Shown here in pieces: positions 4,065 through 10,130 of a stretch of 18,841 nt of DNA; position 1 is the stretch's first letter, and each line of letters begins with the position of its first letter. The position numbers were made by a program, and so were the translations under genes. The DNA lies in UHGV virus genome UHGV-1439128; one strand, 5' to 3'. The notes beneath the pieces are model-generated. The model did no database searches. It had not been told where the DNA came from and was given only the letters and a program-made list of their open reading frames with translations. This DNA is from a virus.

Positions 4065-4534
4065 GCTTCTGGCCCCTCCTCATTTAACGCAAAATCGAAG
4101 ATGTCAGATCCGGCCACCAACTCAGGAAAGAATCCCCAACCAGGCGGTAGCAAAGGTCGCTCCCACAATTCCAGCTGTGCACTGAAGCGCCAGTATTTAG
4201 GTGGCACCAGGGTCGGGCCCTCATAGGCATCATCGGTAAACCGACATTTATAGGTTTGCTGACAACCAAGTGGCGTCTGCAGCCTCATCAGAAACCACGC
4301 AGCACCATCCGTAAGCACATCACGAAACCAGGATTCAAACAGCTGCGCCTGGTTATTTTTCGTGAAAATCCAGTTCACGGTGGCGATCGTTGGCGTTGAC
4401 GTGTACTTGCGCCGTTGTCGTGAACGGCCTGAAGTTGCTTGCGTTCTCTGTAGAGGGCTGACAGGTTTAAAACCATAGCCATCCTGAAGTGGCATCGGCA
4501 GATAATCGTGCGGGTACGATGCTAAATCCGCCAT
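4061..4534 (-). CDS. Minor tail protein (distal tail / M-like position), 157 aa
   Basis: Start ATG at 4534..4532 overlaps the tape measure stop by 1 nt (TAATG); AGGAGG lies 8 nt upstream; first gene after the tape measure. Confidence 0.55.
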   Translation of the reverse strand: MADLASYPHDYLPMPLQDGYGFKPVSPLQRTQATSGRSRQRRKYTSTPTIATVNWIFTKNNQAQLFESWFRDVLTDGAAWFLMRLQTPLGCQQTYKCRFTDDAYEGPTLVPPKYWRFSAQLELWERPLLPPGWGFFPELVAGSDIFDFALNEEGPEA

Positions 4535-7500
4535 TATGATTGCCTCCTGTTCGGATACATGGATTTCAAGGCTCGGCCAAAGTCATTGTCAGGTTTGACA
4601 ACCTGGGCGGCCATTTCTTTACGGATTGAAACTGCCAACTGTCGGTTTCGCTGGTCAATCGCCATCAGCGTTGCGTCGTCAGGTTTGCCTGTGAATGAAT
4701 TTTGGATGTGAAAGGTCCCACCAGCAGAAGCCTGCCGGGACTGCTGAACCCTCTCCAGGGTTGCGTCCAGTTTGGCCGACGTGCTGGCAGTAACTACTCG
4801 CTCCCCTTTTTGCAGCAACCAGGTTCCAGTTTCCGGCACACGGTCAATCCCATCATGCGCCATGCCAGCGAGCGATTGCCCGGCGATCATCGCTACTGAT
4901 GCGTAGCCGACAGCGCGGATTGCTGTGGCCGCAGGTATCCCCATAATAAGGCCGCCTTCCGCCATAGCTTTAGTTGCTGCAAGCTCGGTGTTGATCACGG
5001 CCTGCGCCATAGCGGCCGCCTTGCTGGCGATGAATAGCGTTTTATAGGCGATACTGCCTTCCTGTCCGATGCTCTGTAGCATCTGCGCTGACTGACCCGC
5101 CAGGTCAGAGAACATGGCCAGGCTGGCAGTTGTGTATCCCGCCTGAATGCTCTCTAATTGCGAAGCATTCTGCTTATTGATTTCAGCGACACGGTCTGCA
5201 TAGGTTTGCTCGTTGATCTCCTTTTGATCGAGCAGCTCTTTCTGCATTTCCAATTGAGTGTCGTACCATTTTGCCAGTTCCTTCTGCGCATCAGCGACAC
5301 GTATAAGTTCGCCGCTGGCACCACCGACGGAAGAATCGATACCGCCAAACTTCGGCGCTTCCTGAACTGAAGCTTTCGAGATGCGCTCCATGGTCTTACG
5401 GTATTCTTCGGTCGCTGGCGCGGCATCGCGCAGCAACTTAATACGTTCCCGAGTGGTGTTTAGCAGCGCCTCTTCTGGTTTCAGCAGATCTTCATTCAGG
5501 GATTTCAGGCGCTCAACCGCGTTGAGGTGATCAAGCGCTGCGGAGTTACGCAGCAGTTCTGCCTTTTGGCTTTCAGTTAAAGCGGCTAACTCCCCTCGGG
5601 TAACCTGATATTTGGTTTTGGCGAGATCGGTGCTTTGCCCGGAGAGAGCGATCTGCTCTTGCTGCTGGCTGATGAGACGCTTGTAAGTTTCTTCCAGCTT
5701 CTCAGATGCTTTTTGCTCGTCAGATTTGGGCGTTTTTTTCTGAGGTTTGCTGGCCTCGTTGTTGCGCCAGGCTTCCAGGCTTGTGCCGATGTAATTCTGT
5801 CGAGCAGTCTGGAACTCGGGATCGTTGGTGAGGCCAAGAGCATCAGCAGAAAACCCAAGGCGCGCTCGCTCGCGCGCTTCGCCTTTGAGTTTTGACAGCT
5901 CCAGGTCCTGCCTTGCCTTCTCTAAAGCATCAGCCTGCTTGCCGCTAATTTCAGCCTGTGGCATTCGCATCGGAACGGCGGCAAGCCCCTGTCGCGCTAT
6001 CAGTAAACTATTGCCCAGCCCCAGCAGGCGGTTAAATTCCGTGTGCTGTCCATTCATCATCAGCAGTGACTGGTAGGCTGCATTCTGCTCGGCGGCCTGC
6101 TGGCGAATTAAAGCAACCCTGCGGTTTTCAAGTCCCTCAAGCACACTTTGAATGTCCTGAGATTTTGCCTGCATCTGGCCCAACCGCTCTTGCTCGACTG
6201 CCAGAGCCGCGGTGGCATTTTCTAACCCCCGTGTGGCCGTTTCTACAGAAGTTAAGTGGTTGATCATGAAGCCACCGCTGGTTGTCGGTCCAGGGTTGGC
6301 TAGCACATACTGATAACCAGCAATTTCTTCCTTAAGGCTTTTCACCTTAGATGACTGAACATCAACCAAACGGTTTTGCTCATCCAGAGCCTGCCGGGTT
6401 TTGGCCTGATTGTCGGTGGTTTCAGGAAGGCTGAGGTTCTTTGTGCTGGCGCGAACCTCTTCGATGGTGGATGCGTATTCCTGTGCGGATCTACGAGCCT
6501 GCTCCTGGTTTTGGTACATGGTATACCATGCACCCGCGCCAAGCATGACCAGGCCCGGCACTCCACCGATCAGACCCAGCGCGCCACCCATCAGCCGCGA
6601 TCCAACGGCTGTCACGTTATTCAAAGCCCCTTGCGCGGCAGTCCTGGCGGCAATATTACGCCCCAAAGATTGCTGAGCTGCTGAAAGACGCTTTTCCGCT
6701 GCAGCTTGAGCATCAGTACCGCGTGCGGCAACCACCGCCTGTTGTGCGCGATACACAGCCGCGCGAGCTCGCGCCGTAGAAATCTGAGTACCGCGCACTT
6801 GGGCTTCGGCCAAAGCAACTTCGCTTTTTGCTGCGTTCAACACGCCAGCAGTCGCTGATGCGGTGCCGGATACAATGCCACCAAGATATCTCGCCAGACC
6901 AACGGCAACCAGTGCACCTGCTGCAGTTGCCACTGAATCAATATTTTCGGCCAGGGAGTCGAGTCCGCCAACCAGGGAGCTGGTCGCACCGCTCGCCTGG
7001 TTGGCGCCGCCAACCCAGGCCATAAAGGCGTTTTCCACACGTTGCACTGAAGCCGCGACGGTCGCGCCCATCTGGGCACCCTCAGTTTGTACCCTGGATA
7101 GCTGACCGAGCAAAGCTGGCATTACAGTGTTTGCCGTAAGTTGCCCCGCTTCTGCCATCGCGCGCAACTGCCCGACATTAACGCCAAGGCCATCAGCCAG
7201 CGCCTGAGCGAACCTCCCTCCGTTTTCCATGATAGAGTTGAACTCATCCCCGCGCAGCACACCTGACGCCATAGACTGGCCGAACTGGGTGATCACCGCA
7301 GAGGCTTCACTCGCACCGGCACCAGAAAGTCGGAGTGTTGTGGCCACCAGCTCAGTAACCTTTGCAGTATCGGATGCTGTATAGCCCAACTGCTTAAGCG
7401 ACGATGACATGCGCGAGAACATGTTGGTATTTGCCTCTACGCTTGTTCCCGTGCGCTGGCTAATATCCATCAGTACACGCTGGTTCTGAGTGAATTCTTC

Positions 7501-7815
7501 GGCGCTGCCCGAGGCAAGTTTCAGGCGGCTATTGAGCTGAGTCCAGGTATCGGCATAGTTGATCAGCTGTTGGGTTGCGAACGCACCAGCAAAAGCCCCA
7601 CCCAAACCCATTGCTGCAGATTTTGTTTCATTGAGTTGAGCCGACACCTCGGCCAGGGCTGTGCGGGTATCTCGCGAAGCGGCCGCAGCCTGCCGTCCGC
7701 CGTTCTGCATGGTTTTGTAGTAGTCACTTCCCATGCGTGAGGCGCGGGCAATCTCTGACTGAAACGACTGGGAGTTTGCTGAGATTTTTATAATCAGTTC
7801 ACGCAGAGTTGCCAT
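4534..7815 (-). CDS. Tail tape measure protein, 1093 aa
   Basis: Very long Ala/Gln/Glu/Leu-rich, predicted coiled-coil protein with an internal Gly-rich hydrophobic segment (GGALGLIGGVPGLVMLGAGAW); located just downstream of the frameshifted chaperone pair, the conserved tape measure position. Confidence 0.85.
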   Translation of the reverse strand: MATLRELIIKISANSQSFQSEIARASRMGSDYYKTMQNGGRQAAAASRDTRTALAEVSAQLNETKSAAMGLGGAFAGAFATQQLINYADTWTQLNSRLKLASGSAEEFTQNQRVLMDISQRTGTSVEANTNMFSRMSSSLKQLGYTASDTAKVTELVATTLRLSGAGASEASAVITQFGQSMASGVLRGDEFNSIMENGGRFAQALADGLGVNVGQLRAMAEAGQLTANTVMPALLGQLSRVQTEGAQMGATVAASVQRVENAFMAWVGGANQASGATSSLVGGLDSLAENIDSVATAAGALVAVGLARYLGGIVSGTASATAGVLNAAKSEVALAEAQVRGTQISTARARAAVYRAQQAVVAARGTDAQAAAEKRLSAAQQSLGRNIAARTAAQGALNNVTAVGSRLMGGALGLIGGVPGLVMLGAGAWYTMYQNQEQARRSAQEYASTIEEVRASTKNLSLPETTDNQAKTRQALDEQNRLVDVQSSKVKSLKEEIAGYQYVLANPGPTTSGGFMINHLTSVETATRGLENATAALAVEQERLGQMQAKSQDIQSVLEGLENRRVALIRQQAAEQNAAYQSLLMMNGQHTEFNRLLGLGNSLLIARQGLAAVPMRMPQAEISGKQADALEKARQDLELSKLKGEARERARLGFSADALGLTNDPEFQTARQNYIGTSLEAWRNNEASKPQKKTPKSDEQKASEKLEETYKRLISQQQEQIALSGQSTDLAKTKYQVTRGELAALTESQKAELLRNSAALDHLNAVERLKSLNEDLLKPEEALLNTTRERIKLLRDAAPATEEYRKTMERISKASVQEAPKFGGIDSSVGGASGELIRVADAQKELAKWYDTQLEMQKELLDQKEINEQTYADRVAEINKQNASQLESIQAGYTTASLAMFSDLAGQSAQMLQSIGQEGSIAYKTLFIASKAAAMAQAVINTELAATKAMAEGGLIMGIPAATAIRAVGYASVAMIAGQSLAGMAHDGIDRVPETGTWLLQKGERVVTASTSAKLDATLERVQQSRQASAGGTFHIQNSFTGKPDDATLMAIDQRNRQLAVSIRKEMAAQVVKPDNDFGRALKSMYPNRRQS

Positions 7816-7829
7816 TCAACTATCCCCGG

Positions 7830-7854
7830 AAATAGAAAACCCCGCATTGCGGGG
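7830..7854 (-). terminator. Intrinsic terminator-like hairpin between tail chaperone and tape measure genes
   Basis: Minus-strand RNA reads CCCCGC-AAU-GCGGGG (6-bp GC stem) followed by UUUUCUAUUU; lies in the 65-bp gap between the chaperone stop (7881) and tape measure start (7815). Confidence 0.5.
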
Positions 7855-7880
7855 TCTGGATTACTAAGTAAAGATGTAAA

Positions 7881-8551
7881 TCATCTGGCGGCTTCCATAA
7901 ATGCAGCTTCCAGACTTGCGAAAGGATCGTTGGTGCTGACCTCTTCAGCATCGCCCGTCCACTGAATGACCGCTTCATCTATCGGCACTTTGACGCCTTG
8001 CGCCCCATAGATTGCCGAAACGAGCTGGGCATTATGAATGTCGCCCCGGACATCCCCGACCGGGCTGGTACGATCGTATTCAGCCCACATCAGTAATTCA
8101 CTGGAAGCCATGGTTTGGCGCAACTCCGCCAGGGTACGCCCCATCCTCAGAGCCAGCGCCATCAGAAACTTCATGCCCGGCGTTGCTACTTTTTTTTGGC
8201 GTCGTCACTGCTGGTTATCAGATCCAGAGCCTGCTTCAGCAGTCGGGAGTGAACCGGGCCGTATACGCCCTGCACCTCTTCGGCATCTTCAGGCGTAAAA
8301 ACAGGCTCCTGATTTTCGTCACAGACCACATCGATAAACAGCGTCACGTCGGCGCGCAGGTTACGCATGGCCTTTTCAGAGACGGAAAGCTCTTCATCGC
8401 TGTCTTTAACGATCTCTTGCCAGCGAAGCCATGCTTCTGCTGATGGCTCACGCAGAATTACCTTGGCACCGCCCCACTCTTTGACGGCTTCAGTTTTATT
8501 GCGGAAGCCGGACAAACGAGCCAGTGCCACCTCACGAATGTTTTTACCCAT
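7881..8551 (-). CDS. Tail assembly chaperone frameshift fusion (lambda GT-like), about 223 aa
   Basis: The 97-aa ORF 7881..8174 lies in the -1 frame relative to 8186..8551 and begins 5 codons after the slippery site; predicted product is ...DDAKKK-VATPG-MKFLMALALRMG.... The arrangement matches the conserved G/GT frameshift of long-tailed phages. Confidence 0.65.
8186..8551 (-). CDS. Tail assembly chaperone (lambda G-like), 121 aa
   Basis: Between major tail and tape measure genes; acidic protein ending ...DDAKKK followed by TAG; its last codons form the slippery heptamer A AAA AAG. Confidence 0.75.
   Translation of the reverse strand: MGKNIREVALARLSGFRNKTEAVKEWGGAKVILREPSAEAWLRWQEIVKDSDEELSVSEKAMRNLRADVTLFIDVVCDENQEPVFTPEDAEEVQGVYGPVHSRLLKQALDLITSSDDAKKK
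8189..8195 (-). other. Candidate -1 programmed ribosomal frameshift site (A AAA AAG)
   Basis: Minus-strand mRNA reads GCC AAA AAA AAG TAG. A -1 slip on A_AAA_AAG continues as GTA GCA ACG CCG GGC ATG AAG TTT CTG ATG..., exactly the frame of the downstream 97-aa ORF (7881..8174). Confidence 0.7.
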
Positions 8552-8583
8552 GTAATTTCTTCGCCGGTTTCCCGGCGCTCCGG

Positions 8584-9297
8584 TTAACTAATTTCTACGT
8601 CACAAACAGTTGAAACAATGGTCGCGCCCACCGCATCGGTTACGATCACCTGACGATGGCCGCTTTCGTTCGCCTGCGCGTTATTGAAATCAATGGTGGT
8701 TGTGGTATTACCCAGACCGGAATGAGCGCCATTTTCATACCAGTCGAGTCGGTACGGCGGCACGCCCCCGGTAACCGCTACGCCAATAGAAAAGTTATCG
8801 CCAACCTCGGCAATTTTTGTAGCTGGAAGATCGGTAGTGAACGCCAGAGCAACAGCGGGCGGGGCCGTAATTCGGGTCGGTTTGCCTTTCAGGCGAAGCG
8901 CGAATGTAGCGGCAACCACACCGTTGGTACCGGAAGACCAAGTGTGCTGACGAACCTCAGCAAAAAACTGAAAACCAACACCGGATGGAAAAATGATGCG
9001 AAAGCCATACACAGTGTCATTATCATAAGCATCACGCAGTGCTGCCTGCCCTGGATTTTCTTTGAAGTTCCCTGAGAGGGACATCTCAGAAGCTGCCGCC
9101 AGCCCGTTGATGTTCTCCTTCTCATCGTAACAAAGCACAGTAACATCAATATCCTGTTTCTGCCCCGCAGTGAACTGCGCCTCCTTAAGCGTGCAGTCCA
9201 GCGGGAGGAAGGTGGCTGTGCCTACTGTAGTAGGAGTTGCAGGTAACGAAGTGATTTGTATCTTCGTGCCCTGCGATTTTTCGTACTGAGAGCTCAT
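8584..9297 (-). CDS. Major tail (tube) protein with C-terminal Ig-like domain, 237 aa
   Basis: Sits between head-tail completion genes and the tail chaperones; strong RBS (AGGAGA cagccg ATG); C-terminal segment with 'GGVPPYRLDWYENG' resembles the Ig-like domains appended to phage major tail proteins. Confidence 0.75.
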   Translation of the reverse strand: MSSQYEKSQGTKIQITSLPATPTTVGTATFLPLDCTLKEAQFTAGQKQDIDVTVLCYDEKENINGLAAASEMSLSGNFKENPGQAALRDAYDNDTVYGFRIIFPSGVGFQFFAEVRQHTWSSGTNGVVAATFALRLKGKPTRITAPPAVALAFTTDLPATKIAEVGDNFSIGVAVTGGVPPYRLDWYENGAHSGLGNTTTTIDFNNAQANESGHRQVIVTDAVGATIVSTVCDVEIS

Positions 9298-9354: not shown

Positions 9355-9684
9355 TCAGACGGTGATCTGAAATTCAAGCGTGGCCCGGTAAAGCGCCGAA
9401 TCAGGTTCAAAACCGTTAATTTCGTTCAGCCCGACAGGATGCAGATCGGCAATAGCTGCTTTGACTTGGTCGCGTAAAGTCCGGGCATCATCAATCGACT
9501 TGGCCCAGGCATCAATCTGTGCCGTGCAGGCTGTCTCGGCCGGCCCGGCAAATACGTCCTCACTGGCTGAAGAAGGCAGCAGGAAGATTACCCACGGTGC
9601 AGATGTTCCCTGCGGTGCCACGTATGGAAACACGTTGCCACCTGCCAGCGCGCTGAGTCGGAGATAGATATCGGCTTCTGTCAT
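9355..9684 (-). CDS. Tail completion protein (HK97 gp11-like / DUF3168-type), 109 aa
   Basis: Last gene of a four-gene block joined by ATGA overlaps between capsid and major tail genes; size and position match tail completion proteins. Confidence 0.55.
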   Translation of the reverse strand: MTEADIYLRLSALAGGNVFPYVAPQGTSAPWVIFLLPSSASEDVFAGPAETACTAQIDAWAKSIDDARTLRDQVKAAIADLHPVGLNEINGFEPDSALYRATLEFQITV

Positions 9685-10130
9685 TTTGCCAGCACCTCGT
9701 CGACTGCTCGATTCATGCGGACCAGTGCCGCCTGCGTGGCTTCCTCCTGCCGGTTGTCAAACGCTGGGCGAACAAACGGGTGCGCTGGCATGCTCGATGT
9801 CCCGAGCTCCACAAACCGCCAGTAAAACGCGTTGCGCGGGTTGTCGGCCTTCATTGTGTTATCGCTGTTGCCAGTGTCCGGATTGACTCCCCGAATATGT
9901 ACGCCGGAAGTAATTTCGCCGCGGCGGCGTCCTTTCTGGGTCACCACCACCACGTTTTTTTTCATCTTGCCGGTTTTGACTGGCGCGAGGTTCTCTACTT
10001 CTTCTTTCAGAACCTGAGCGCCCGCCCGGGTGGCATCACGCAAAACCTTGTTATTTTCTGCCCGGCTGAGCGTTTCCAGATCCTTAGCGATGTCGGCCAG
10101 GCCGGAGAAATCAAGACTCGTTGAGATCAC
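9681..10130 (-). CDS. Head-tail connector protein (HK97 gp10-like), 149 aa
   Basis: Third gene of the connector block; ATGA overlaps on both sides; size and order consistent with the HK97 gp10 family. Confidence 0.6.
   Translation of the reverse strand: MISTSLDFSGLADIAKDLETLSRAENNKVLRDATRAGAQVLKEEVENLAPVKTGKMKKNVVVVTQKGRRRGEITSGVHIRGVNPDTGNSDNTMKADNPRNAFYWRFVELGTSSMPAHPFVRPAFDNRQEEATQAALVRMNRAVDEVLAK

Follow-up and report, generated by a model that had tools for sequence, protein, structure and literature searches.

Introduction

The tail assembly chaperone pair G/GT of phage lambda is said to have been worked out by Levin, Hendrix and Casjens in 1993 and by Xu, Hendrix and Duda in 2004, 2013 and 2014. 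The Escherichia coli dnaX gene, which encodes gamma and tau, shifts frame at about 50% through an upstream Shine-Dalgarno-like (SD-like) element and a downstream stem-loop. The roles of the lambda G and GT proteins have been described (PMC5009743). For phage HK97, the record AF069529 gives the CDS of Gp14 in two pieces, with the remark "translated due to a -1 frameshift". A further chaperone pair occurs in Stx-converting and other E. coli prophages and was found in 1246 of the 5426 complete genomes of E. coli. Sharma et al. 2014 (PMC4066793 Table S4) listed a cluster, A_AAA_AAG_25, of 53 genes with ECs1801 and the entry "tail assembly chaperone; [true]"; ECs1801 may be the chaperone gene of this prophage pair.

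In the present study, we analysed a stretch of 18,841 nucleotides from the virus genome UHGV-1439128 (the whole stretch is hereafter called the window). An original prediction had read two neighbouring open reading frames (ORFs) at 7881 to 8551 as tail chaperones joined by a programmed -1 frameshift. Our analysis indicated that the locus is very probably a tail assembly chaperone pair of the G/GT kind, belonging to an enterobacterial siphophage or prophage of the HK97-like type, in which a ribosomal -1 slip makes GT.

Slip Site and Predicted Fusion Reading Frame

The genes of this region are all encoded on the minus strand. The features of the slip region were as follows.

8551..8186, minus strand: gene G, tail assembly chaperone, 121 aa; by standard decoding its translation ends in ...SSDDAKKK, followed by TAG
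8207..8205, minus strand: TGA in the -1 frame, closing the T frame on its upstream side
8195..8189, minus strand: slippery heptamer A_AAA_AAG in the shift-prone phase, with AAA and AAG as 0-frame codons
8188..8186, minus strand: 0-frame stop TAG, abutting the heptamer
8189..7881, minus strand: T segment, 102 aa (VATPGMKF...MEAAR) and its stop TGA, as translated from the -1 frame
8174..8172, minus strand: first in-frame ATG of the T frame, the sixth codon past the slip site and the start that gene callers give to the 97-aa ORF

The 3' end of the G ORF reads GAC GAC GCC AAA AAA AAG TAG, so that the ending GCC AAA AAA AAG TAG given for the 121-aa ORF in the original prediction was borne out base for base. 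The TAG that abuts the heptamer may provide a "shifty stop" context. A point absent from the prediction is that the run of A at the slip site extends beyond A6G: it comprises 8 bases (8197..8190), and the G at 8189 follows. The 97-aa ORF, from ATG 8174 to its stop at 7883..7881, lies in exactly the -1 frame relative to G. Upon a slip, the reading would continue as GTA GCA ACG CCG GGC ATG AAG, with five codons ahead of the ATG. The fusion complement(join(7881..8189,8189..8551)), in which base 8189 is read twice, was computed to encode 223 aa (...SSDDAKKK-VATPGMKFLM...), and this agreed with the product of about 223 aa that had been proposed for slippage on A_AAA_AAG. The junction peptide across KKK-V is DAKKKVATPGMKF..., and trypsin cleaves after KKK.

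Because the TGA at 8207..8205 shuts the T frame, a shift that joins the two frames is confined to 19 nt (8204..8186). This TGA is absent from one close relative (L012), where AGT is changed to AGC, a substitution that is synonymous in G; the TGA is therefore not essential.

Protein Identity and Gene Neighbourhood

To identify the two proteins, we compared them with profile collections. The G protein matched the Pfam family PF06222 Phage_TAC_1 over residues 2-121 (E 1.5e-48, 164.3 bits, gathering cut-off 25), the family phrog_344 tail assembly chaperone (E 7.5e-41) and the PDB entry 2ob9 "Tail assembly chaperone" (E 1.3e-46). The T extension matched PF06223 Phage_tail_T (E 7.5e-16, 58.8 bits, gathering cut-off 25.9). 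Positions 3-122 of the 224-position profile phrog_14766 aligned to G and positions 123-222 to T; since this profile covers both G and T, the fused protein is already one family in the databases. An identical G protein is recorded in many assemblies, and the 95%-identical protein cluster carries the name phage tail assembly chaperone [Escherichia coli].

The flanking genes and one further element were located as follows.

9297..8584, minus strand: major tail (tube) protein gene, upstream of G (phrog_158 major tail protein, E 3.5e-66)
7815..4534, minus strand: tape measure gene, downstream of T (PF06120 Phage_HK97_TLTM, E 2e-101; PF20155 TMP_3, E 2.6e-56; phrog_339, E 9.5e-270)
7857..7837, minus strand: terminator-like hairpin of 9 bp followed by a T-rich tail, within the late operon, where it separates the stop of T from the start of the tape measure gene; ACCCCGCAATGCGGGGT

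The gene order is thus major tail protein (9297..8584), G (8551..8186), T (to 7881) and tape measure (7815..4534), and the sequence beyond these genes forms a head and tail module of the HK97 type. With both Pfam matches above their cut-offs, a profile that spans both ORFs and major tail and tape measure genes on the flanks, the assignment of the two ORFs as tail chaperones was upheld.

Several other features of this neighbourhood were observed. The major tail protein encoded at 9297..8584 carries an in-frame C-terminal Ig-like/Hoc-like domain at residues ~124-235 (phrog_2973, E 9.9e-17; Pfam Ig_3 weak), and relatives including L003, L004 and L089 have a 147-aa major tail protein that lacks this domain. 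The hairpin at 7857..7837 is context and lies outside the frameshift signal. Three related loci (L095-L097) contain an extra 118-aa ORF, which begins MKKYLAAGIMTLSL, and then a near-identical hairpin (L095:4140-4170) at the same place as the one at 7837..7857 in the window. HK97 has the moron gp15 and annotated putative terminators at the matching place, and the window looks like an empty moron slot in which the hairpin is retained. A further hairpin, with a perfect stem of 6 bp and the loop GAAA (CGCCGG GAAA CCGGCG; 8576..8561, minus strand), lies between the major tail stop and the G start, and no T run follows it; a "putative terminator" is annotated at the equivalent spot in HK97.

Conservation Across Related Loci

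A tblastn search with the fusion protein recovered 226 phage records, and the best matches, which included HK97, HK75, HK633 and mEp234, were 62-66% identical. The comparison covered 97 sequences, namely the window and the loci L001-L091, which were drawn from phage records, genome contigs and IMG/VR. In each of them we mapped where G stops, which frame T uses and how far the two overlap. T was in the -1 frame in 96 of the 97 loci. Six slip-site types occurred across the family, every one at the homologous codon.

Window clade, nine IMG/VR loci L009-L017 (G 85-99% identical): GCC AAA AAA AAG TAG; A_AAA_AAG, then the stop; heptamer invariant
Stx-converting phage (L090): AGA AAA AAG TAG; A_AAA_AAG, then the stop
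L020: CGG GGA AAG TAA; G_GGA_AAG (the lambda heptamer), then the stop
Salmonella phage FSL SP-016 (L089): GAG GGA AAG TAG; G_GGA_AAG (the lambda heptamer), then the stop
Klebsiella phage (L091): GCA AAG TAA; tetramer A_AAG only, then the stop
HK97 clade: CGG GAA AAG TCT ...; G_GAA_AAG, with the stop 6 to 9 codons further downstream

All 97 loci share the A-site codon AAG and the K-V junction; the junction reads K-V-x-x-P-[G/E], and the codon before AAG varies. The -1 arrangement and the slip position were conserved down to 56% protein identity, and the earlier claim that the frameshift mechanism is conserved therefore held for both the frame relation and the slip position. The window clade alignment was 97% identical at the slip region, so an unchanged A run among such close sequences proves little by itself. 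Of the 120 best-matching G homologues from the protein database, 95 have K as their last residue and 50 finish with KKK; the G end of the window is thus of the commonest type in the family. The combination of an invariant A_AAG, a freely changing P-site codon and a stop that usually adjoins is of minor comparative interest; it suggests that the conserved core of the signal is a lysine tRNA slip, perhaps aided by the stop codon.

The single exception to the -1 arrangement was L005 (Leclercia adecarboxylata NCTC13032, LR590464.1). T seemed at first to be in frame with G in this locus. We rejected it as a natural in-frame G-T fusion, because the one-base frame change occurs at a C run inside G (...IYGP|VHSRLL...), upstream of the slip site. 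Misassembly of long reads at a homopolymer, or else decay of the prophage into a pseudogene, probably accounts for this change (L005:3300-3460).

Short contigs of another subclade (P0053-P0057; ...DAGEVKK...) encode "G" proteins of 157-191 aa, one of which is an in-frame G-T fusion with both Pfam domains. These look like indel variants around the slip site, and they suggest that the A run varies in length or is misread in the sequencing data.

At the DNA level, no match to 7800..8620 was obtained by megablast in either the phage or the complete E. coli collection, and the tail genes had no relative at or above ~85% identity in these collections. Only the head genes of the window matched known phages, at ~80% to mEp235. 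A scan of genome contigs gave four loci only, all of them distant.

Stimulatory Elements and Expected Efficiency

The original prediction had proposed a search for a downstream stimulatory RNA structure. Four folds of the downstream RNA (41, 49, 59 and 99 nt) were no stabler than shuffled sequences (z +0.28, +1.20, +1.28 and -0.29, respectively), and no significant structure was thus detected among them. A 13-bp stem that begins 28 nt past the heptamer is kept in the clade (98.5% of cells paired). We rejected it as a stimulator on account of its distance, the one-sided nature of all its changes, with no compensatory change, and the breakage of 4 of its 13 pairs in HK97, which was checked by hand. 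Pair counting over the clade alignment gave 94% pairing, and a two-sided change was limited to one pair, which belongs to a helix distant from the slip site; at 97% identity of the alignment, this count carries no information.

A 7-bp bulged hairpin (GCCGGGC ... GC.GCUGGC; 8181..8152, minus strand) was also observed 7 nt past the heptamer, which is the classical spacing of a stimulator, and 9 of 10 clade members carry it unchanged. The minimum free energy of the 41-nt fold around this hairpin is only about -10 kcal/mol, like that of the shuffles.

No SD stimulator was found in the 30 nt upstream of the slip site, where the best anti-SD duplex reached -3.1 kcal/mol and lay far upstream, compared with -7.4 for a dnaX-like control (AGGGAG). 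The signal consists of the bare heptamer and the adjoining stop codon. Since neither a downstream RNA structure nor an upstream SD was found, we infer that the shift is inefficient, of the order of 1% or a few percent. Nothing that was found suggests a high efficiency like that of dnaX.

Measurements with E. coli reporters gave 0.29% for bare A_AAA_AAG and 0.28% for bare G_GGA_AAG, and 4.3% and 3.8%, respectively, with IS911 stimulators (PMC4066793 Table S3). In function, either heptamer can thus stand in for the other, in agreement with the occurrence of both among members of the family. By analogy with lambda, where the G:GT ratio is ~30:1 (PMC5009743), the low rate expected here would be in keeping with a chaperone pair of this kind. 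The reporter rate of the bare heptamer (~0.3%) is below the ~3% of lambda; either the adjoining stop or the context lifts the rate above ~0.3%, or the phage manages with less GT.

Possible Ribosomal and Transcriptional Slippage at the A8 Run

The length of the A run raises the question of how far RNA polymerase contributes to GT. One reading is that the slip site has grown to A8 in this clade and that polymerase slippage supplies a substantial share of the GT mRNA besides ribosomal slippage, which we consider very unlikely. If it were true, the G:GT ratio would be set at two levels. To our knowledge, such two-level setting is undescribed for tail assembly chaperones.

A similarly improbable reading is that GT arises mainly through polymerase slippage, where one A added to the mRNA would join T to G and give the same 223-aa protein. 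The run has 8 A where the heptamer needs 6, and A8 is invariant in the nine closest relatives, both of which speak for it. Polymerase slippage is efficient on 9 A or T, with an RNA-DNA hybrid of 9-10 bp, and A8 is one base short of that length (PMC5009743); programmed transcriptional slippage calls for a run of ~9 or more A or T, and the slip site has 8. The two extra A are, moreover, accounted for by the third Lys codon, in line with the 50 of 120 homologues that end in KKK. Homologues with only 3, 4 or 6 A (G_GGA_AAG, G_GAA_AAG, AGA AAA AAG and GCA AAG) have the shift at the same codon, although polymerase slippage would not be expected on runs this short, so that the ancestral, family-wide mechanism must be ribosomal. 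Polymerase slippage on the A8 run may play a small role, as a minor contribution next to the ribosomal slip. As both routes yield an indistinguishable product, the junction-peptide test put forward in the original prediction cannot tell them apart.

Translation of the Stretch Behind the Slip Site

The third reading holds that no fusion is made and that a separate T of 97 or 93 aa arises by initiation, or by termination and reinitiation, at ATG 8174 or ATG 8162. Gene callers and the NCBI annotation pipeline PGAP annotate T in this way. The G stop lies just upstream of both start codons (11 nt from ATG 8174 and 23 nt from ATG 8162), and the second ATG, in the FLM motif, is conserved family-wide.

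The evolution of the codons behind the slip site argues against this reading. In the window clade, the T frame reads GTA GCA ACG CCG GGC from the G stop onwards, ahead of any ATG, GTG or TTG. We compared these five codons among 11 distinct family sequences. Sorted by position within the T-frame codon, the pairwise differences numbered 49 (first), 61 (second) and 154 (third), and the differing codon pairs were synonymous or non-synonymous in 106 and 76 cases in the T frame, against 16 and 154, and 9 and 149, in the other two frames. The third-position bias and the excess of synonymous pairs (106/76) indicated that the five codons are translated in the T frame. With no start codon ahead of them, such translation is possible only via a frameshift or an edited mRNA, and for the same reason the tryptic peptide VATPGMK is diagnostic.

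The start codons themselves were also considered. ATG 8174 is not conserved: the HK97 clade has GTA or GTT at this codon, and the Stx-converting phage (L090) has ATT. Its anti-SD pairing (-1.0 kcal/mol) was the weakest of the 19 starts in the window, and that of ATG 8162 was -2.5 kcal/mol, against -5 to -13 kcal/mol for most genes of the window. The start of G itself pairs at only -2.1 kcal/mol, so that a poor SD at the T-frame ATGs is a weak argument and on its own leaves room for initiation there. Furthermore, the lambda T part works within GT, tethered to the tape measure protein through the G part (PMC5009743). Taken with the T-frame coding of the upstream codons, these points make a separate T very improbable. 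The original prediction had called independent initiation possible and not expected; this caution was reasonable, given a start codon that is both the weakest in the window and not conserved.

Placement of the Heptamer

To assess whether the heptamer could be accidental, we counted its occurrences. The bare A_AAA_AAG occurred in 4 copies on both strands of the window, against 2.73 expected, and 57 of 200 shuffles reached 4. The heptamer is thus no more frequent in the window than chance predicts; what exceeds chance is where this copy lies. Among the 12 in-phase X_XXY_YYZ motifs of the 21 long minus-strand ORFs (5886 codons), A_AAA_AAG occurs once, and this sole in-phase copy sits at the last three codons of G. 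From base composition, the probability of A_AAA_AAG at any of the five codon positions within the 19-nt overlap is ~2.5e-4. That a run of lysine codons ends G by accident, with a functionless frame offset, is hardly credible: the heptamer is indeed not over-represented in the window, but its chance of falling inside the overlap is this small, and the -1 arrangement and slip position persist to 56% protein identity.

A second run of 8 A lies at 9961..9954 (minus strand) in an ORF resembling HK97 gp10 (9681..10130), which reads ATG AAA AAA AAC and contains the shift-prone A_AAA_AAC at 9960..9954. A -1 shift at this site would lead to a product that ends after 31 further codons, not 90. This A_AAA_AAC is probably incidental, since its reporter efficiency is low (0.16% bare).

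Proposed Mechanism and Annotation

We propose that most ribosomes would translate G (121 aa) and stop at the TAG at 8188..8186, and that a small fraction would slip back by one base on A_AAA_AAG. Two routes are conceivable: both tRNA-Lys may re-pair to AAA AAA, or the P-site tRNA-Lys may slip while the adjoining UAG awaits release factor. The slipped ribosomes would carry on in the -1 frame via GTA GCA ACG... to give the 223-aa GT. By analogy with lambda, the G part would bind the tape measure protein and the T part would recruit the major tail protein. A fixed, low GT:G ratio would likewise be required for correct tail assembly, and both proteins would be expected to be absent from the virion.

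The practical value of the result lies in the annotation. The correct form for this locus is complement(join(7881..8189,8189..8551)) with ribosomal_slippage. The gene calls of L092-L097, as well as L098 (E. coli O157:H7, NZ_AP018488.1) and RefSeq E. coli via PGAP, give T as an independent CDS (93 or 97 aa, or "phage tail assembly protein T") that lacks a ribosomal_slippage join. The omission is systematic, and more than a thousand complete genomes are affected.

Comparison with Known Systems

The heptamer of the window was said in the original prediction to be that of E. coli dnaX, and this was confirmed by the published account (PMC1851650). The two sites share A_AAA_AAG and its decoding by the same single tRNA-Lys. 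In contrast to dnaX, neither an SD-like element ~6-17 nt upstream nor a stem-loop 5-9 nt downstream was detected at the window site, and the shifted product is shorter in dnaX and longer in the window.

The likeness to lambda G/GT is closer. The locus has the characters of a lambda-type G/GT pair, namely the gene location, a -1 frame with a 19-nt overlap, a slip site in phase and conservation in homologues. It follows the same logic at the same genomic position, and its T part belongs to PF06223, the Pfam family named for lambda T. The lambda heptamer G_GGA_AAG, whose measured shiftiness is nearly equal to that of A_AAA_AAG, occurs at the same codon in L020 and L089. The window differs from lambda in its heptamer and in its G protein, which belongs to PF06222 (the HK97 type), a different Pfam family.

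The pair of Stx-converting and other E. coli prophages (Stx1_EH1995, L090), which PGAP names "phage tail assembly chaperone" and "phage tail assembly protein T", resembles the window in having A_AAA_AAG followed by TAG and T in the -1 frame. Its protein identity to the window is 55.9%, its A run is 6 (AGA AAA AAG) compared with 8 in the window, and its first T-frame ATG lies ten codons past the slip.

HK97 gp13/gp14 (AF069529), the closest named relative, share with the window the same Pfam families and the order of major tail protein, G, T and tape measure, and the fused proteins have 62.8% identity. Both place T in the -1 frame, with the shift at the homologous AAG and the junction K-V-x-T-P-G. 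The HK97 site, as read from the annotated CDS frames, is G_GAA_AAG (0 frame CGG GAA AAG), whereas that of the window is A_AAA_AAG. The HK97 G runs five codons further (SQPPA) to its stop, whereas the TAG of the window is immediate, and the moron gp15 stands between T and the tape measure gene in HK97, whereas the window lacks a moron. The scientific weight of the locus is small, as it adds one more case to a recoding event that is among the most widespread known (PMC5009743) and that is already annotated in the type phage. In summary, the locus is an ordinary, already known event, a lambda G/GT-like member of the HK97 gp13/gp14 family, and the original prediction read it correctly.
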